From positions 9,797-73,796 of the forward strand of contig JAQVJW010000002.1 of the NCBI GenBank assembly GCA_028694925.1: a DNA stretch of 64,000 nucleotides, written 5' to 3'. How positions within the stretch are numbered: the stretch's first letter is position 1; each line of letters opens with the position of its first letter. This document shows, piece after piece, positions 2,521-62,903 of the stretch. The translations under genes were made by a program, and so were the position numbers. The stretch is from Patescibacteria group bacterium. Lineage in GTDB: Bacteria > Patescibacteriota > CPR2 > UBA1875. A model generated the notes under the pieces. The model searched no databases, had not been told where the DNA came from, and saw nothing but the letters and a program-made list of their open reading frames with translations.

Positions 2521-2743
2521 GGTTGCAACTTGCGTTAGAACTTTTTTGTAATAAATAATGTGGTATTTACCTATATGCTACAACAGAAACATAACAATTT
2601 AGTCTTTATCAAGAGAACGAAGGTAGTATAATAGTAACAAACGGAGGTATAGGAGGAATTTATTACTTCTTAAAGGGGTAGAAGGGGACCCATTATAGTG
2701 CTCCATAGTAAGGAGGAAAGACCTTTTATATAAGGTGAAAAAT

Positions 2744-2872
2744 ATGAGTGGAACAAGAGGGAATGGCTTAAAGGCCGCTGAAACAAACAAGAAAAGAAAG
2801 GGAGCCAATTTCTACGGAGAGATTGGCCTCAAGGGCAGACTTAAAATGGGAGTGAAAAAGGATTATGAGTAA
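2744..2872 (+). CDS. Small KGG-repeat-like stress protein (YciG/Con-6-like), 42 aa
   Basis: Translates to MSGTRGNGLKAAETNKKRKGANFYGEIGLKGRLK. It is a paralog of 3340..3531 with long identical DNA stretches. At under 60 aa it is absent from the ORF track. An AGGAGG lies upstream. Confidence 0.45.
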   Translation: MSGTRGNGLKAAETNKKRKGANFYGEIGLKGRLKMGVKKDYE

Positions 2873-3167
2873 TTTTATGATAAAAAATATCAGAAAATTA
2901 TTGGGTTTATCGATTAGGTTCATCGGATTGATATATATGTTCTGGATATTAGTGGTTAAATTTCCTCTGTTCTTTGTAGCATTTTATGATTTTAATTTTT
3001 ATGAGGATGTTCTTTCCACATGGGGAGCCGGGTTCATGATTAAATTAGTAATAACTTTACTTTTTTTTGTGCCTGCGATTTTACTATATAAGATTGGAAA
3101 TTTAGTCGAAGGACGCGACTGGGATTATTGGTTCGATGATATAATTAAGAGATTTAGCAAGGAGTAA
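2865..3167 (+). CDS. Hypothetical small membrane protein
   Basis: 100-aa ORF with two or three hydrophobic helices and no recognisable domain. Confidence 0.35.
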   Translation: MSNFMIKNIRKLLGLSIRFIGLIYMFWILVVKFPLFFVAFYDFNFYEDVLSTWGAGFMIKLVITLLFFVPAILLYKIGNLVEGRDWDYWFDDIIKRFSKE

Positions 3168-3171
3168 ATAT

Positions 3172-3336
3172 ATGACTGTATTGGCAATTTTCTTAGCAAT
3201 CCTTCTGGTGATACTGTTTATAATTTATACAACTGAGACTGAAGAAAAAGATGAGGAAATTGAAATTTTAGAAAACAGAATAACTAGTTTAGAGGGTGAC
3301 ATTGTTAAACTTAAGAAAAAATTTGGAAGAAGGTAA
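3172..3336 (+). CDS. Hypothetical mini-protein with a TM anchor and coiled coil (54 aa)
   Basis: Translates to MTVLAIFLAILLVILFIIYTTETEEKDEEIEILENRITSLEGDIVKLKKKFGRR. It was found by manual translation and is not in the ORF track. Confidence 0.3.
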   Translation: MTVLAIFLAILLVILFIIYTTETEEKDEEIEILENRITSLEGDIVKLKKKFGRR

Positions 3337-3339
3337 AAA

Positions 3340-3531
3340 ATGAGCGGAACTAAAAGGGGCGGTATTAAAGCTGCTGAAACAAACAAGAAAAGACATGGAG
3401 CCAATTTTTACAAAGAGATTGGTGCCAAGGGTGGATTGAAAACTGGTGTGAAAAAAGGATTTGCGGCTAACACCAATCTTGCCCGTCTAGCGGGTCAAAA
3501 AGGTGGAAGGATTTCAAAAAGAAAAGCTTGA
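3340..3531 (+). CDS. Small KGG-repeat stress-induced protein (two KGG motifs)
   Basis: GANFYKEIGAKGG and LAGQKGG fit the KGG stress-protein repeat. It is a duplicated paralog of 2744..2872. Confidence 0.55.
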   Translation: MSGTKRGGIKAAETNKKRHGANFYKEIGAKGGLKTGVKKGFAANTNLARLAGQKGGRISKRKA

Positions 3532-3562: not shown

Positions 3563-6229
3563 ATGACAAAAGGACTTTTATTCAAAAAGTTTGTCCTACA
3601 CTTACACACTCCCGGATCAAGTGATTGGAAGGGTGGGAATAAAGCGGCTGAGGATATAGTAAAAAAAGCAATCGAGAAAGAGCTGGCTGCTATAGCAGTC
3701 ACTGATCATAACTCAGGTGATTTTGTCGATGAAATGAAAAAAGCTGCTGAGAAAACTAGTTTAGTGGTATTCCCTGGGGCTGAAATTGTTGCCACGGGCG
3801 GTAAGAAAGGCATACACTTAATTGTCATATTTGACGTCGATAAAAACTCCGCTCATGTAAAAGCTTTTTTAAATACAATTGGGATATATAAAAAAACTGC
3901 TGCCGCAGATAAAACAGTTAATGAGATAGCCCGTAAGCTAGAAGAGTTTGACCCTTCTGCAATTATCATTCTTGCCCACTGCCATTCTAGTAAAGGAGTA
4001 TCTGGCGATATGCAAGGGGAGGTTAGGGCTAACATTTTTAACCAGAAGAATGATTGTATTTTAGCTGCTGAGGCGGCTAGAAGCGACTTTGAAGCTACCG
4101 AGAAAATAGAAAAGCATACAAGAGTCATTGATCTACTCGATGGAAGTAATCCGAACTTCGGGAAGAAAAAGTTAGCCGTTATACAGGCTGCGGATTCTCA
4201 TGATCTGGACTCTGTGGGTGACAAATTTACTTATTTGAAAGTAGATGAAGTAATAACAATTGAAGATTTAAGGCAGGCCTTTATAGATAGGGAGACAAGA
4301 GTGAGGCAACCTTGGGAATATACAGAGAGTCAGTTTCCTAAAATATTGAGGGTAAAAGTTAAGAGCGGATTCCTGGATGGAGAGGAAGTTGAGTTTAATG
4401 ACGGTCTAAACAGTATTATAGGTTCAAAAGGATCTGGTAAATCATTACTAGTTGAATTACTAAGGTTTGCACTTAGCCAGGAATCACACATTAAGGCTGT
4501 TTCAGAGGATCACTTTTCTAAATTAGAGAATTGTTTAAAGTTACATGGGGTAGTAACCGTGACATTTTCAGACAAAACCGGGCATCTGTATGAATTGGAA
4601 AGGACGTATGCACCCTCAAGTGAAAGCCCGACCAGAATAACTGATTTAGAGGACGGGTCAATTAAAAGTTTTGATGTAGAGACCCTCTTCCCTATTTTAT
4701 TCCTAAGCCAAAATGAGGCTATTAGAATCGCAGAGGAGAATGGGGGTGAGAACCAAAGGAGATTTATAGATAGATTCTTCGATTTTCATAAATATCAGTC
4801 GGAGATTAAAAGGCTAAACAAAAGACTAGCTGAAATTGATACTCGCTTCGCTGATGCAATAGAATCAAAGTTTAAGTTAGGAGTTGTTCAAAAAGAGCTT
4901 GCTACATTAGAAGAAGAGGTTGCGAAACTAGATAGGCAAATGAAAAAAGATATATTCGCGGAGTATTCAGAAAAGGAGAAGATTAATATTAGCATCCGGA
5001 GTAAGTTAGATTTTTTCGACTCGTTAGAGTCGGGCCTTGAGTCAATAATAATTGATTACAGGGATATTCAAGAAAATAGTACAGCAACAGATGGGCCAGA
5101 CGATCCAATAATAAAAAGGTCAAACGAGATACTCCAGGGCACAACGAATAGTATAGTTGAGGGCTTATCGGGAATAAAAGATTTGATTGGGGCTGAAAAG
5201 AAAAAATTTAAAGCAGAGGTAGACGATTGGGATAAAAAGTTTAAGTCAATTAAAAATAGTTATCACGACGCTGTTCTAGAGGCCGGAGGTAGTCAGGTTG
5301 TCTTAAACGAACAAAGAGAAGGGGTATTGGCACGTATAAAAGAAAGGAAAAAAGAAGAGGCGTTTCTTAAGAGTAAAACCGTTTTATTGAATTCATTGGC
5401 TGATGAGCGGAAGAGTCTATTACGGGGGCTAGAAGAAACAAGAAAGGCTTATTACGATCAAAGAAAAGAGAGGTGTAAATATTTATCCGAAAAATCTTCT
5501 GGTTTGGTAAAGGTTTCGATTAAGGAGATGGAAGATAAGTCAGTATTTAAACAAAAATTACTTGCATTAAAAAAAGGTTCTTGGATTTCGGACAAGGATA
5601 TGGAAATTATGGCAGAGAAAATTAAGCCCAAAGACCTTGTTAGCTCTCTGATCAACTATGCGAATGGAACCAGAGAAAAAAGTGTTAAAAAAGTAATCTT
5701 AGCAACTGATATTGATGAAAAAACGGTTGAAAAATTATTTGACTTTTTAACAGGGAGTTTAGATGTTAGGGAGATCCTGGCTTTAATGTATGACTCTGTT
5801 CCGGAAGACGTTCCGGTTATTAAATATAAAGTGGGGACGGGGGAATACAGAGAATTAAAGGATCTTTCAACTGGGCAAAAGGCTTCTGCCTTACTGATAG
5901 TCGCTCTGACTGATGGTGACTTCCCAATTATTATCGATCAACCAGAGGATTCGCTGGATCTCGTTTCAATTTGGAATGATGTATGTGAAAACATTAGGAA
6001 AACTAAAGAGAAAAGGCAATTTATTTTTACTACACATAATTCTTCAGTCGCGGTGGCCTCTGACTCCGATAATTATATAATTTTAGAAGCTGATGCTACA
6101 ACCTGTAGAGTTGTTGTATCTGGGTCAAATAATTCTACTGAAGTTAACGATAAAATCGTAAGCTACCTTGAGGGAGGAAAGCCTACCTACGCCCTCAAGA
6201 GGAGAAAATATATCAATAAAAGAAAATAA
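3563..6229 (+). CDS. PHP-domain phosphoesterase fused to an SMC/RecF/SbcC-like ABC ATPase with a long coiled-coil insert (Ppl-like defence protein architecture)
   Basis: PHP motifs are HLHTPGSSD, AVTDHNS, AHCHSSKG and AADSHDLD. The Walker A is GSKGSGKSLL. A coiled coil of about 350 aa follows. The ABC signature is STGQKASALL, the Walker B/D-loop is IIIDQPEDSLD and the H-loop is FTTHNS. Confidence 0.75.
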   Translation: MTKGLLFKKFVLHLHTPGSSDWKGGNKAAEDIVKKAIEKELAAIAVTDHNSGDFVDEMKKAAEKTSLVVFPGAEIVATGGKKGIHLIVIFDVDKNSAHVKAFLNTIGIYKKTAAADKTVNEIARKLEEFDPSAIIILAHCHSSKGVSGDMQGEVRANIFNQKNDCILAAEAARSDFEATEKIEKHTRVIDLLDGSNPNFGKKKLAVIQAADSHDLDSVGDKFTYLKVDEVITIEDLRQAFIDRETRVRQPWEYTESQFPKILRVKVKSGFLDGEEVEFNDGLNSIIGSKGSGKSLLVELLRFALSQESHIKAVSEDHFSKLENCLKLHGVVTVTFSDKTGHLYELERTYAPSSESPTRITDLEDGSIKSFDVETLFPILFLSQNEAIRIAEENGGENQRRFIDRFFDFHKYQSEIKRLNKRLAEIDTRFADAIESKFKLGVVQKELATLEEEVAKLDRQMKKDIFAEYSEKEKINISIRSKLDFFDSLESGLESIIIDYRDIQENSTATDGPDDPIIKRSNEILQGTTNSIVEGLSGIKDLIGAEKKKFKAEVDDWDKKFKSIKNSYHDAVLEAGGSQVVLNEQREGVLARIKERKKEEAFLKSKTVLLNSLADERKSLLRGLEETRKAYYDQRKERCKYLSEKSSGLVKVSIKEMEDKSVFKQKLLALKKGSWISDKDMEIMAEKIKPKDLVSSLINYANGTREKSVKKVILATDIDEKTVEKLFDFLTGSLDVREILALMYDSVPEDVPVIKYKVGTGEYRELKDLSTGQKASALLIVALTDGDFPIIIDQPEDSLDLVSIWNDVCENIRKTKEKRQFIFTTHNSSVAVASDSDNYIILEADATTCRVVVSGSNNSTEVNDKIVSYLEGGKPTYALKRRKYINKRK

Positions 6230-6233
6230 GGTG

Positions 6234-7040
6234 ATGAATGTAGAAAAGGGACCACTCGAGCAATCATATGAACTCGCCAATCTTGCTACTTTTGATGCGA
6301 CTGCTTTTGTGGGAGACGAGTCAGCATCTCAAGAGCTTTGTGACTTTATTTTGACGTTGGCAGTTATGTGCAATGAGCTGAAAGATTTGTCGAACATTAA
6401 AAAAGAAATTATAACAACCAGTCCAGTTAAGATAGACTCCCAATTGATTACTCCTCAAAAGGGTAATCTGGGGGGTTATTTGGCATTTATTTTGAGATTA
6501 TATATCTTGAAAGTTTATGAAATGTCGGAATTATTTCGTTCAAGTCTAGTTCTAATAGAATCAAGTCAATTTGAGGTTTATCTTAAAAAAATTAGCAAAA
6601 AACAAAGAGAAATGTGGGACTCTTCAGTAGCAATGCTTACCAATAATAAGGCCGACGGTAAGTTTAATAAGGTATTAACAGTCGTGAGACACAAGACAGC
6701 CGGACATTGCGAGGCCAAAGAAATAGCTAAGGGATATCGTTTTTATTTTATAGATAGAAAAGGTATGGAGCCTTACATTTCGTTTGGTGATGGTATACCG
6801 TCAACCAGGTTTCATTTTGCAGATGCGGCAATGGAAGGCTACCTACTTAAGAAACACAAAGATCTTTCGGCGGGGTATATTGAAAAGGAAATGGATGAGC
6901 TAATTAGCTATCTGTACAATTCGGTCTGGTTGTTAGTAGGTAAGTTTGTTAATTCCAGGAGTTCTTGGAAAAAACCGACCGAAGACAAATTGCCTGAGCC
7001 AGAGGGTTTTGGGGTTAAGGGTTTAAGGTCAAAGTTATAA
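6234..7040 (+). CDS. Hypothetical protein, tightly coupled partner of the PHP-ATPase
   Basis: The ATG lies 4 nt after the upstream stop. It encodes 268 aa with no recognisable motif. The ORF track entry 6168..7040 includes an upstream overlap. Confidence 0.5.
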   Translation: MNVEKGPLEQSYELANLATFDATAFVGDESASQELCDFILTLAVMCNELKDLSNIKKEIITTSPVKIDSQLITPQKGNLGGYLAFILRLYILKVYEMSELFRSSLVLIESSQFEVYLKKISKKQREMWDSSVAMLTNNKADGKFNKVLTVVRHKTAGHCEAKEIAKGYRFYFIDRKGMEPYISFGDGIPSTRFHFADAAMEGYLLKKHKDLSAGYIEKEMDELISYLYNSVWLLVGKFVNSRSSWKKPTEDKLPEPEGFGVKGLRSKL

Positions 7041-7296
7041 AGTCGTTCCTATATTTTCGCCAAATGGAACACATATCAAATAGACCATTTTATCGGCCTA
7101 TTTCTAATAATGACACAGGAAACTACCATGCTGAGGTAAAAGTTTCTTATTGTTATTATGTACTGTGAGGATTTTTCCTTAAAATTAAAAGATATGCAGA
7201 AGATCGCTCCACCTCAGCATATGTTTACAAAGTAAACCTATTTACCTCCCTAAAAAACGTGAATATGTAGCAAAATTGTTATAGATTCACGTTATA

Positions 7297-7325
7297 TTGA
7301 CAAATAATCGTGAATTATATATAAT
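7297..7325 (+). promoter_or_regulatory. Consensus sigma70-type promoter (TTGACA-17-TATAAT) for a near-leaderless Fic transcript
   Basis: TTGACA at 7297-7302, a 17-nt spacer and TATAAT at 7320-7325. The Fic ATG at 7338 is only about 6 nt past the predicted TSS. Confidence 0.5.
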
Positions 7326-7337
7326 AAATATAGTATT

Positions 7338-8228
7338 ATGGCAATTTCTAAAAATATTAGAAAAAATCTAAACAATCTTAAACGAGAGTATGATTCCTTA
7401 AAGAAGGGCAAAGAATCTCTTTTGGATATGCTATTTGAGGTAGAAATTCCAGAGTCAGTCTATAACTCTAACGCTATTGAAAACTCAACCCTAACCATCA
7501 AAGAAACAGAAAAGATATTAATGGAGATGGAGGTTTCTAGGGATGTCTCTGTACGTGAAGTCTTTGAAGCAAAAAACTTGGCAAAAGTCTTTGAATTTAT
7601 TAAGGCCCAATCCCAAAAAGATAATTTGGATAAAGAGTTTATTTTACTAATCCATAAAATGTTAATTGATAATATTAATGGAAATATTGCTGGAAGATTT
7701 AGAAAACCCGGTGAATATGTCCGAGTTGGTACTCATATTGCCCCAGCACCAGAACAGGTACCAGACCTTATAGAGTCAGCTCTGTTGGAATATTCTAGTA
7801 ATTTAAACTCCTATTTTCTGGAAAAAATTCCCAAGTTTCACCTAGAGTTCGAAGATATACATCCTTTCTGCGACGGCAATGGGCGTATTGGCAGAGTAAT
7901 CCTTAACTATCAACTAATGGATCTTGGATTTCCGCCTATTATTATAAGGGATAAAGAAAAAGCTGATTATTACCAATCATTCAGGGAATACAATATTAAG
8001 AATAAAACTGACCAAATGGAAAGGGTTTGCTATCTAGCGCTTCTAGAGTCTTTTCATAAAAGAATTACCTATTTAAAGGGTCAAAAAATCATTACATTGG
8101 CAGATTATGCTAAAAGAAATAAGGAGCCACTTAATGCCCTTTCTAATCGAGCTAAAAGACAAACGATACCTGCCTTTAGGGAAAAAGGCATCTGGAAGAT
8201 TGGTAAGGAGTATAAGAAATATCTCTAA
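7338..8228 (+). CDS. Fic/DOC family protein, class II (N-terminal inhibitory SxxxEN motif)
   Basis: Canonical Fic motif HPFCDGNGRIGR, with an upstream inhibitory-helix motif SNAIEN. Confidence 0.85.
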   Translation: MAISKNIRKNLNNLKREYDSLKKGKESLLDMLFEVEIPESVYNSNAIENSTLTIKETEKILMEMEVSRDVSVREVFEAKNLAKVFEFIKAQSQKDNLDKEFILLIHKMLIDNINGNIAGRFRKPGEYVRVGTHIAPAPEQVPDLIESALLEYSSNLNSYFLEKIPKFHLEFEDIHPFCDGNGRIGRVILNYQLMDLGFPPIIIRDKEKADYYQSFREYNIKNKTDQMERVCYLALLESFHKRITYLKGQKIITLADYAKRNKEPLNALSNRAKRQTIPAFREKGIWKIGKEYKKYL

Positions 8229-47908: not shown

Positions 47909-47985
47909 TGGTGGGTGGTACTGGATTCGAACCAGTGACCTCTGCAATGTCAATGCAACGCTCTAACCAACTGAGCTAACCACCC
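47909..47985 (-). tRNA. tRNA-Val (anticodon GAC), CCA-encoded
   Basis: Manual fold: acceptor GGGUGGU/ACCACCC, anticodon stem UUGCA/UGCAG with loop UUGACAU, and T-loop GGUUCGAAUCC. Confidence 0.85.
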
Positions 47986-57438: not shown

Positions 57439-57515
57439 CGGGGTGTGGCGCAGTTGGCTAGCGCGTACGCATGGGGTGCGTGAGGTCGCAGGTTCGAGTC
57501 CTGTCACCCCGACCA
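57439..57515 (+). tRNA. tRNA-Pro (anticodon GGG), CCA-encoded
   Basis: Manual fold: acceptor CGGGGUG/CACCCCG, anticodon stem UACGC/GCGUG with loop AUGGGGU, and T-arm GCAGGUUCGAGUCCUGU. Confidence 0.85.
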
Positions 57516-62516: not shown

Positions 62517-62903
62517 GGGGCTGACTTGGCTTCGACGGAAGTTACTTGAAATCAGAATAATGCAATTCGCGGTCGCATATCCGCGTTAACCAATATGTAA
62601 ACAAATAAGTGTAAAAACACTTGCCGCTAAAGTTAGAAATGCATTTAGCATGCCTGCTTTAGCAACTGTTGTCGCATAACTGCGGTAACCATCTGCTCCC
62701 CAACGTCCGATAGGGGTCAGCAGGTGCTAGAACTTCGGGCTGCTCTGGGTGACTTGCCTAAACCCAGCTAAGACTTAGGTAATTGGTTGTAAGTTTTTTC
62801 TTAGATCTTTAGCTTGCAACCGAGAAAAGAGATCTGAGTATGATTGCTAAAGTTGTTCTGGTTTTGCTTTCGGACGCGGGTTCAATTCCCGCCAGCTCCA
62901 CCA
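62517..62903 (+). ncRNA. ssrA: tmRNA (transfer-messenger RNA)
   Basis: 5' GGGGCUGACUUGGCUUCGACG and a 3' tRNA-like end GGACGCGGGUUCAAUUCCCGCCAGCUCCACCA. The internal tag ORF ends ...GCA TAA. Confidence 0.8.

Follow-up and report, generated by a model that had tools for sequence, protein, structure and literature searches.

Adjacent genes for a TrlF-family PHP-ATPase and a predicted HEPN-like RNase in a Patescibacteria defense island are not a conserved pair

Two genes that lie almost end to end in a Patescibacteria genome raise the question of whether they form a new two-gene defense system or are neighbors by chance. In the window, the 64,000-nucleotide stretch of contig JAQVJW010000002.1 analyzed here, an 888-aa ATPase is encoded on the forward strand at 3563..6229 (ATG start, TAA stop at 6227-6229). 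It is followed on the same strand by a small gene at 6234..7040, which opens with an ATG at 6234 and encodes 268 aa. Only the 4-nt spacer GGTG (6230..6233) separates them. The open reading frame calls agree with the first-pass annotation, which took the spacing to suggest an obligate two-gene variant of a Ppl-like system. The start at 6234 agrees with the N-termini of homologs of the small protein, and the deposited NCBI protein is 100% identical to the 268-aa product over its 268 aa.

Domains and family of the 888-aa ATPase

The fusion of a complete PHP phosphoesterase with a split SMC-type ATPase, already recognized in the first-pass annotation, is supported by Pfam, by invariant catalytic residues and by an AlphaFold2 model. 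The PHP domain (PF02811) spans aa 12-213 (3596..4201, forward strand); the Pfam match itself covers aa 12-169 with 33.9 bits against a cut-off of 26.4. Among 35 homologs the metal ligands H15, D48, H49, E74, H85, H139, D211 and H213 are invariant and H13 nearly so. Of the PHP domains with solved structures, 3e0f and RNase AM (7ug9) are nearest. Matches to AAA_23, AAA_21 and SMC_N span aa 272-834. The Walker A motif GSKGSGKS (aa 287-294; 4421..4444, forward strand) is invariant in the same alignment at G287, K289, G290, G292, K293 and S294, and sequence searches of the PDB match this region to the N-terminal lobe of Rad50. The Q-loop residue Q383 is invariant or nearly so. The ABC signature LSTGQKA (aa 768-774; 5864..5884) has invariant S769, G771, Q772 and K773, the Walker B region PIIIDQPED (aa 788-796; 5924..5950) has invariant D792, Q793, P794, E795 and D796, and the H-loop His825 (nt 6035-6037) is invariant, all on the forward strand.

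In the AlphaFold2 model (pLDDT 83.3) the ATPase lobes are separated by an antiparallel helical arm, aa 409-644 (4787..5494, forward strand), with its apex loop at about residues 502-514. The arm is followed by a strand-plus-helix subdomain of about 95 aa (aa 649-744; nt 5507-5794, forward strand) and then by the C-terminal ATPase lobe. The lobes are therefore split by a helical insert, as had been proposed; the arm, however, is only about 235 aa long, rather than a coiled coil of about 350 aa. Foldseek returned SMC, Rad50, JetC, MukB, RecN and LmuB heads with coiled coil (E values from 6e-10 to 1e-7). The window protein shares the ATPase head and helical arm with Rad50-Mre11/SbcCD, JetC of Wadjet and LmuB of Lamassu (E values from 6e-10 to 2e-7), although its arm is much shorter than those of Rad50/SbcC, JetC and LmuB. 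Its nuclease is a PHP domain fused at the N-terminus and nearest to the RNase AM/TrpH type, whereas those systems use a separate subunit (Mre11, JetD or LmuA).

HMM searches also place the protein in a family. NCBIfam NF045780, "TrlF family AAA-like ATPase", matches with 394.2 bits (E 1.9e-117; cut-off 350), aligning protein residues 4-882 to model positions 2-940 of 944. The equivalog model for Ppl itself, Ppl_antiphage NF042955, also aligns over its full length (positions 6-875 of 882) but scores 196 bits against a cut-off of 1000. The PADLOC Ppl model PDLC02208 matches in two stretches, the best being protein residues 2-638 (E 7.2e-46, 154.8 bits), a match judged by score with PADLOC's coverage rules left unapplied. 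A homolog search at E<=1e-20 recovered 296 full-length ATPase homologs, the closest at 50% identity. On these profile matches the 888-aa protein is an ordinary member of the TrlF family, a PHP nuclease fused to an SMC/Rad50-type ABC ATPase. It is a distant full-length relative of Ppl rather than a Ppl ortholog, because it falls so far below the equivalog cut-off despite aligning from end to end. The description "Ppl-like" thus holds for collinear, full-length homology and fails as an assignment to Ppl, since it is the TrlF model that the protein passes.

Plasmids, BREX islands and restriction-modification islands carry the TrlF family in a patchy pattern; on plasmids, TrlF genes sit within or beside BREX loci. 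TrlF of Photorhabdus resembles the window protein in its PHP domain and split ABC ATPase, and its family occurs in defense and mobile contexts. It is encoded in a trlR-trlF-trlG locus (PMC7554251), and the same TrlF-TrlG arrangement is found on a Vibrio plasmid, so that a PHP-ATPase with a second gene had already been described. TrlG is a protein of about 400 aa with AlbA_2 and HATPase_c_4 domains and trlR is small, the window ATPase adjoins neither, and Pfam detected no AlbA_2 or HATPase_c_4 protein among its neighbors. Plasmid-borne TrlF proteins are only about 25% identical to it. Ppl, the single-gene anti-phage protein of Escherichia coli, has the same domain order and is collinear with the window protein throughout, and most close relatives of the window ATPase are, like Ppl, solo genes.

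Gene order and conservation of the pair

The pair lies among defense genes: a REase-like gene, a C5 methyltransferase, Mrr and Fic. Near the ATPase gene are a NOV_C/DUF3883 gene (68-562), the methyltransferase gene (566-1528) and the Mrr gene (1645-2520), and domain searches bear out the methyltransferase, Mrr-type nuclease and DUF3883 protein beside which the first-pass annotation placed the pair. A Fic/SoFic-like gene, with a Fic domain match, lies downstream of the small gene (7338-8228). GC content is 35-38% across 2-8 kb and 40-45% in the rest of the window. The pair lies in a low-GC defense island of a Patescibacteria genome, and we consider it moderately likely, as part of the overall explanation that we favor, that the island was horizontally acquired. 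A common island ancestry of the window and another locus, L001, was rejected; their Mrr genes are not orthologous.

A site search of the junction between the ATPase gene and the small gene found neither a promoter-like nor a terminator-like element. The two genes are probably cotranscribed, since the 4-nt spacer leaves no room for either, and functional coupling in this organism is for that reason a possibility. A sigma-70 consensus, TTGACA-17-TATAAT, matching at 12/12 positions, precedes the Fic/SoFic-like gene at 7297..7325 on the forward strand and delimits the putative ATPase-HEPN transcript on its downstream side.

Conservation of the arrangement was examined from both sides. For the ATPase, 73 distinct relatives were recovered, and 1 kb or more of sequence beyond the gene was available downstream for 47. 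In the flanks of these 47 an HMM search found no member of the small-gene family anywhere (0/47). From the other side, seven further loci with a member of the small gene's family were examined and none (0/7) contains a PHP-ATPase, including those of homologs 71% and 57% identical to the window protein; these two are its only close homologs in databases, and the test on this side thus covers few contexts. The 71% identical homolog adjoins a HATPase/DUF4325 gene and Mrr, the 57% identical homolog adjoins a TaqI_C methyltransferase fragment, and more distant members are isolated or in other defense-like contexts. A locus search with a three-sequence alignment of the small protein returned a single locus in the genome collection, and a word-indexed search with a 101-sequence profile of the family returned only eight proteins.

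The flanks of the ATPase differ at every locus examined. In 41 of the 47 relatives the 50 nt downstream contain no start of a co-directional gene of 100 aa or more, and the nearest relatives (48% identity) are solo genes. The tightly spaced downstream genes of the other six are mutually unrelated and include Ymh, PLD, AbiEii, an MmeI-like enzyme and unknowns. An all-against-all BLAST of flanking open reading frames, which looked for a conserved neighbor of any kind in the ATPase clade, gave clusters only between near-identical contigs. A lack of conserved synteny with PHP-ATPases had been named in the first-pass annotation as grounds for refuting an obligate pair, and no conserved synteny was found. 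Judged by gene order in the genomes sampled, the two genes adjoin in this lineage alone and do not represent a conserved system; the obligate two-gene variant is not supported.

A rival reading is a genuine pair peculiar to this lineage, in which the PHP-Rad50-like ATPase would sense phage DNA or its ends and license the HEPN-like RNase as a second effector. Such a pair would amount to a two-gene counterpart of RloC/PrrC, or to an operon of the TrlF-TrlG type whose second gene has been exchanged. The shared strand and 4-nt spacing without internal promoter or terminator are consistent with it, and the perfect promoter of the Fic gene sets the ATPase and small genes apart as a unit. TrlF genes can have a tightly linked TrlG, as in Photorhabdus and Vibrio, and one of the six tight downstream genes among the 47 relatives, at locus L032, encodes Ymh, a different HEPN protein, 24 nt from the ATPase gene. 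Defense systems that join HEPN domains to Rad50/SbcC-like or analogous ATPases are also known (PMC3710099). Against these points, the pairing is conserved in neither direction. In length and in its conserved C-terminus the window ATPase does not differ from its solo relatives (coverage 99-100%), and Ppl needs no second gene in E. coli (PMC11482910; PMC12904381). The small-gene family is mostly stand-alone, one distant member being monocistronic with opposite-strand genes on both sides. Short gaps are also common here, 15 of 43 same-strand neighbor pairs in a rough gene call of the window being separated by 10 nt or less. A true lineage-specific pair is therefore, in our judgment, unlikely.

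Very unlikely is the narrower proposition that the TrlF-type ATPase and the HEPN-like protein act in this lineage as a two-component defense unit, a split analog of RloC. The ATPase would then sense phage DNA ends, its PHP domain would degrade the DNA, and the RNase would be released for abortive infection. RloC has a Rad50-like coiled coil, and the anticodon nucleases RloC and PrrC, like the window pair with its predicted RNase, bring together a Rad50/SbcC-like ATPase and a HEPN RNase in a defense island. They differ in that both parts reside in one polypeptide and the combination is conserved, whereas the window has two genes whose pairing is seen once and an ATPase with a PHP nuclease of its own. 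If the proposition were true, it would mean that TrlF cores recruit interchangeable second effectors (TrlG, Ymh-HEPN, PLD and the 268-aa family).

The 268-aa protein and its family

Direct searches of the 268-aa protein against Pfam, NCBIfam and PADLOC found no domain, PDB sequence searches with the single protein and with a profile found nothing, and neither Foldseek against the PDB nor tblastn against plasmids and phages returned a match. The earlier description of an open reading frame without a recognizable domain is accurate for the single sequence; analysis of its family reveals a HEPN-like character. The family consists of unnamed all-alpha proteins of about 250 aa, in at least 751 clusters at 50% identity, and is missing from Pfam, NCBIfam and PADLOC. 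Structure prediction for the window protein, suggested when the locus was first annotated, gave a confident all-alpha model, and tentative fold matches for the family are to the HEPN/KNTase_C clan, whose four-helix up-and-down core the protein may share.

The candidate catalytic motif is R152-H-K-T-A-G-H158 (Rx5H; 6687..6707, forward strand). R152 and H158 are invariant in 101/101 family members, always with a spacer of five, the residue after the arginine is N, H or D in 94/101 (R-[N/H/D]-x4-H), and E96 is 97% conserved. In HEPN RNases four to six residues separate the arginine from the histidine (Rx4-6H), and the arginine is followed by a polar residue, N, D or H (PMC3710099); the family motif, which reads RHKTAGH in the window protein, fits this rule. 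The best Pfam matches of relatives are to HEPN families: Swt1 at 1.4e-5 and AbiU2 at 1.3e-3 for single proteins, AbiU2 at 6e-4 for the relative P0148 as part of a concatenated query, and, for one relative, pEK499_p136 at 0.065. These are only four weak matches in 101 relatives, all under gathering scores; the AbiU2 and pEK499_p136 matches in two relatives both span the Rx5H motif. A concatenated Pfam scan of the first 19 family members gave no HEPN match, only a spurious summed match to "SPA"; a second batch yielded the AbiU2 and pEK499_p136 matches. In addition, a profile comparison of the family with two Ymh sequences, a test of low power, was blank.

Stand-alone HEPN Abi proteins (AbiU2, AbiJ, Ymh and pEK499_p136-like; PMC3710099) share with the 268-aa protein the Rx4-6H motif with its polar residue, a conserved upstream acidic residue, an all-alpha fold and their occurrence as solo genes, and both groups reside in restriction-modification and defense neighborhoods. 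The window protein differs in having no significant match to the Pfam models of AbiU2, AbiJ, Ymh or pEK499_p136. It is probably a stand-alone HEPN-like, Abi-like RNase, as predicted from the family alignment. A diverged TrlG was considered and rejected: the protein lacks AlbA_2 and HATPase_c_4 domains, and its hhalign comparison with true TrlG gave a probability of 0.7%.

Alternatively, it might be a helical protein of a different type in which the conserved arginine and histidine serve to bind a ligand; a regulator, a protein with an immunity or antitoxin-like role and a four-helix protein that binds nucleotides are examples. We hold this to be quite unlikely, as the invariant Rx5H with N, H or D after the arginine, together with the conserved upstream glutamate, is the HEPN catalytic signature. 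The relatives' only meaningful Pfam matches are to three different HEPN families, the two that could be located cover the motif, and the gene recurs beside restriction-modification and defense genes.

Two probably independent defense modules

The explanation that we favor, with moderate confidence, is that the locus comprises two independent single-gene defense modules, a TrlF-type ATPase and a predicted HEPN-type RNase, which are adjacent in a low-GC island and probably cotranscribed. E. coli Ppl protects against phage as a lone gene and is a 3'-5' exonuclease on ssDNA that NTPs inhibit, properties known for that protein only (PMC11482910; review PMC12904381). By analogy, the ATPase heads and helical arm of the window protein may act as a nucleotide-gated sensor of DNA or DNA ends, and the PHP domain would degrade phage DNA from 3' ends once inhibition by nucleotide binding is lifted. 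Collinear homology, domain order and the prevalence of solo genes make NTP-gated 3'-5' exonuclease activity on DNA ends probable. The 268-aa protein is most likely a metal-independent HEPN-type RNase, a stand-alone toxin of the abortive-infection type, with the region N-terminal of the Rx5H motif possibly regulating the protein itself.

That the 888-aa protein is instead a housekeeping SbcC/Rad50/RecN-type repair ATPase, as its SMC_N and AAA_23 domains, its structural likeness to Rad50, RecN, RecF and SMC heads and an electronically inferred RefSeq GO term ("double-strand break repair") on plasmid TrlF genes might suggest, is highly improbable and was rejected on curated model scores (NCBIfam recN 15.5 bits against a cut-off of 407.85; Rad50 models 23.6 against 700 and 21.6 against 1000) and on context, the PHP nuclease being fused without any pairing with an Mre11/SbcD gene, the distribution patchy across plasmids and BREX and restriction-modification islands, and the flanks variable in a low-GC island.

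The analysis prevents genes that adjoin by chance from entering catalogs as a new two-gene defense system, and places the ATPase in the TrlF family and not in Ppl proper. Its clade, mostly a solo gene as is Ppl, is represented here in a bacterium of the candidate phyla radiation. A by-product, which defense-finder models could take up after testing, is a sizeable family of proteins with a HEPN-type signature that no domain or defense database names. It is a reasonable candidate, predicted from sequence, for a new family of stand-alone abortive-infection RNases.

The gene pair and its surroundings

The gene for the ATPase, the 888-aa PHP nuclease::SMC/Rad50-type fusion protein, is an ATG-initiated ORF at 3563..6229 (+) that ends with a TAA stop, and the partner gene follows on the same strand at 6234..7040 after a spacer of 4 nt (GGTG), encoding 268 aa. 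Both reading frames are intact, as the first-pass annotation had described them. The partner ATG at 6234 agrees with the N-termini of homologues and with a deposited "hypothetical protein" from a Patescibacteria metagenome-assembled genome that is 100% identical over the 268 aa. The defence island proposed around the pair is also borne out by its neighbours: a NOV_C/DUF3883 REase-like ORF (68-562), a C5 methyltransferase (566-1528) and Mrr (1645-2520) upstream, and a Fic/SoFic-like gene (7338-8228) downstream of the partner. The GC content at 2-8 kb is 35-38%, with a strong positive GC skew of up to +0.28, compared with 40-45% in most of the window, which fits acquisition of the defence island by horizontal transfer.

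Neither a promoter nor a terminator was found at the ATPase-partner junction, and the Fic/SoFic-like gene is preceded by its own perfect sigma-70 consensus (TTGACA-17-TATAAT, 7297-7325); it is therefore likely, from these sequence signals, that the ATPase and partner are cotranscribed in the source genome. Short inverted repeats (CGTGAAT / ATTCACG), operator-like in appearance, surround the Fic/SoFic-like promoter (7240-7337).

Of a 462-position type II REase model, the NOV_C/DUF3883 ORF (164 aa) matches no more than the C-terminal third; it is separated from the methyltransferase gene by 3 nt and may represent a restriction partner that is truncated or minimal. Directly upstream of the ATPase gene, a direct repeat of 121 nt (2739-2859 and 3335-3455, 77% identity, within 2735-3531) reflects a pair of paralogous small ORFs of the KGG stress-repeat type: the intact copy has 63 aa (3340-3531, Pfam KGG), the other, apparently truncated, 45 aa (2735-2872). 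Two small hydrophobic ORFs (2865-3167 and 3172-3336) sit between the copies. The arrangement may mark a past insertion or duplication. Elsewhere, the window encodes tRNA-Val(GAC) (47909-47985), tRNA-Pro(GGG) (57439-57515) and a tmRNA (62517-62903) with the tag peptide VKTLAAKVRNAFSMPALATVVA.

Family and structure of the ATPase

The ATPase scores 394 bits over its full length against the NCBIfam model "TrlF family AAA-like ATPase" (cut-off 350). It also aligns at full length with the NCBIfam model "Ppl_antiphage", but at 196 bits against a cut-off of 1000, and it matches the PADLOC Ppl model with an E value of 7e-46. On these scores the 888-aa protein is assigned to the TrlF family as a distant homologue, and not an orthologue, of Ppl, so that the Ppl-like architecture initially suggested holds as remote kinship but not as identity. 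A housekeeping repair ATPase of the SbcC/RecN type, the alternative named at the outset, is rejected, the recN and Rad50 models giving 15-24 bits against cut-offs of 400-1000.

The fusion of a complete PHP domain to an ABC/SMC-type ATPase is upheld by Pfam, which places PHP at residues 12-169 and AAA_23, SMC_N and AAA_21 over 272-834. In an alignment with 34 homologues, the PHP metal ligands (H13, H15, D48/H49, E74, H85, H139 and D211/H213) and the ATPase motifs (Walker A 287-294, Q383, signature 768-774, Walker B 788-796 and H825) are all invariant or nearly so. The AlphaFold2 model (pLDDT 83.3) has four parts: an N-terminal α/β PHP domain, the ATPase N-lobe, a helical arm with a subdomain, and the C-lobe. 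The arm is built of long antiparallel helices (409-644), its apex loop lies near 502-514, and a small strand-plus-helix subdomain (649-744) lies between it and the C-lobe; what had been taken for a coiled coil of about 350 aa is therefore modelled as an arm of ~235 aa plus the subdomain. Foldseek matched the model to the heads of SMC, Rad50, JetC, MukB, RecN and LmuB (E 6e-10 to 2e-7), and the PHP part resembles RNase AM (7ug9). Searches by sequence profile and by fold turned up no solved structure of a PHP-ATPase fusion.

Genomic association of the ATPase and partner

The protein database contains 296 full-length homologues of the ATPase at E ≤ 1e-20, with identities of up to 50%. We examined 85 loci, representing 73 distinct proteins at 90% identity, and the partner-family HMM found no member in any of them, even at E ≤ 10 with filters off. 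Of the 47 distinct loci with at least 1 kb of sequence downstream of the ATPase relative, 41 lack any same-direction ORF of 100 aa or more that starts within 50 nt. The remaining six have tightly spaced downstream genes that are mutually unrelated; those at L032 (4601-5398), L056 (3119-3817), L064 (2145-3656) and L065 (3829-7659) lie 10-25 nt after the TrlF relative. A Pfam scan of five of them identified four as a Ymh-family HEPN, a PLD, an AbiEii and an MmeI-like restriction-modification enzyme, and gave no match for the 203-aa gene at L033; the sixth, at L087, encodes 141 aa. For this minority of TrlF relatives, the varied defence genes either reflect the packing of a defence island or serve as accessory effectors that can be interchanged. 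When upstream and downstream ORFs were compared all against all by BLAST, distinct loci had no neighbour in common.

The view from the partner side is the same. A homologue with 71% identity is flanked by HATPase_c/DUF4325 and Mrr genes, and one with 57% identity overlaps the end of a TaqI_C methyltransferase fragment. Among distant members, one resides in an Omnitrophota island with HNH, Ymh, DUF4379 and superinfection-immunity genes, another near DpnII and methyltransferase genes, a third after an OPT transporter gene, a fourth between two opposite-strand genes, and a fifth is isolated by gaps of 625 and 172 nt, with redox genes adjoining. None of these contexts, of the two close homologues and of the distant members, contains a PHP-ATPase.

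The ATPase and partner are thus not syntenic elsewhere. Nor is their 4-nt gap unusual: a rough call of the genes in the window gives 43 same-strand neighbour pairs, of which 15 lie 10 nt or less apart. With synteny missing from both sides, the outcome that the first-pass annotation had itself named as refuting, and with short gaps common, the obligate two-gene system proposed there is not supported. The arrangement was not undescribed either: the name TrlF comes from Photorhabdus, whose trlR-trlF-trlG genes make up the "temperature restriction locus" and whose TrlG is an AlbA_2 plus HATPase_c_4 protein, and so PHP-ATPases with a second gene were already in the literature (PMC7554251). The partner is unrelated to TrlG, and Ppl works as a single gene (PMC11482910). 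The main rival interpretation, a lineage-specific functional pair with a split RloC-like logic, draws only on the tight spacing and on precedents for second genes beside TrlF; given the missing synteny, we regard it as unlikely.

Several TrlF loci have individual features. Ahead of the solo relative at L004 (3545-5713; also L005 and L012), with 48% identity, lie genes for an AlbA_2-only protein (232 aa) and two unknown proteins (245 and 194 aa), an arrangement that could be a rearranged or split TrlG-like accessory. Related proteins of ~1100-1230 aa (29-95% identity) are encoded on the same strand ~85 nt to 1.1 kb before the TrlF-relative start at L014, L018, L021 and L052, the only flanking family common to more than near-identical contigs. 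On plasmids, TrlF genes seem to travel within or next to BREX systems: in Vibrio parahaemolyticus (NZ_CP068629.1) TrlF and a TrlG-type gene are within a BREX-1 locus, inserted between pglX, annotated in two pieces, and pglZ, and in Klebsiella grimontii (NZ_CP055413.1) a solo TrlF directly follows brxL. A Halapricum plasmid has TrlF adjoining a GmrSD gene, and a Staphylococcus plasmid carries TrlF solo.

A probable HEPN-like partner family and its predicted role

A profile of the partner and its two close homologues, searched against 1.84 billion representatives, recovered 751 clusters at E ≤ 1e-3 (435 at E ≤ 1e-10), nearly all of 240-270 aa and matched end to end. Across 101 aligned members, R152 and H158 are invariant and always separated by five residues, and the position after R152 is N (73), H (14) or D (7). 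E96 is conserved in 97%, and W128, S183, G185 and the block T-R-F/Y-Y-F-A-D-A-A (191-199) are nearly invariant. Judged from this alignment, the pattern is the HEPN catalytic signature: Rx4-6H, a polar N/D/H after the arginine and a conserved acidic residue upstream (PMC3710099). The AlphaFold2 model is confident and all-helical (pLDDT 91.9, pTM 0.87) and gave no significant Foldseek match. The partner had been thought to lack a recognizable domain, which is correct for direct searches: Pfam, NCBIfam, PADLOC and PDB sequences yielded no match to it or to the family taken together. A probable identity emerges from the individual members. The best individual Pfam matches among the 101 members are HEPN families: Swt1 (1.4e-5), AbiU2 twice (1.3e-3, single proteins) and pEK499_p136 (0.065). 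The AbiU2 match of member P0148 (6e-4, within a concatenated query) and the pEK499_p136 match of P0162 cover the Rx5H motif. From the conserved residues and these weak matches among its relatives, the partner therefore rather probably belongs to an unnamed HEPN-like family. Its most likely role is that of a stand-alone RNase of the Abi type.

By homology with E. coli Ppl (reviewed in PMC12904381), the ATPase would sense DNA 3' ends under nucleotide gating, with the PHP domain as a 3'-5' exonuclease. Activation would follow the loss of NTPs and the appearance of free ends during phage infection. The partner, probably a dimer like other HEPN enzymes, would cut RNA without metal ions through R152 and H158, leading to growth arrest or abortive infection, and would be controlled by the helices N-terminal of the motif or by cellular factors. 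The ATPase joins a known, curated family, and a new two-gene variant is unsupported; the sole mildly novel element of the locus is the partner's unannotated, putatively HEPN-like family.
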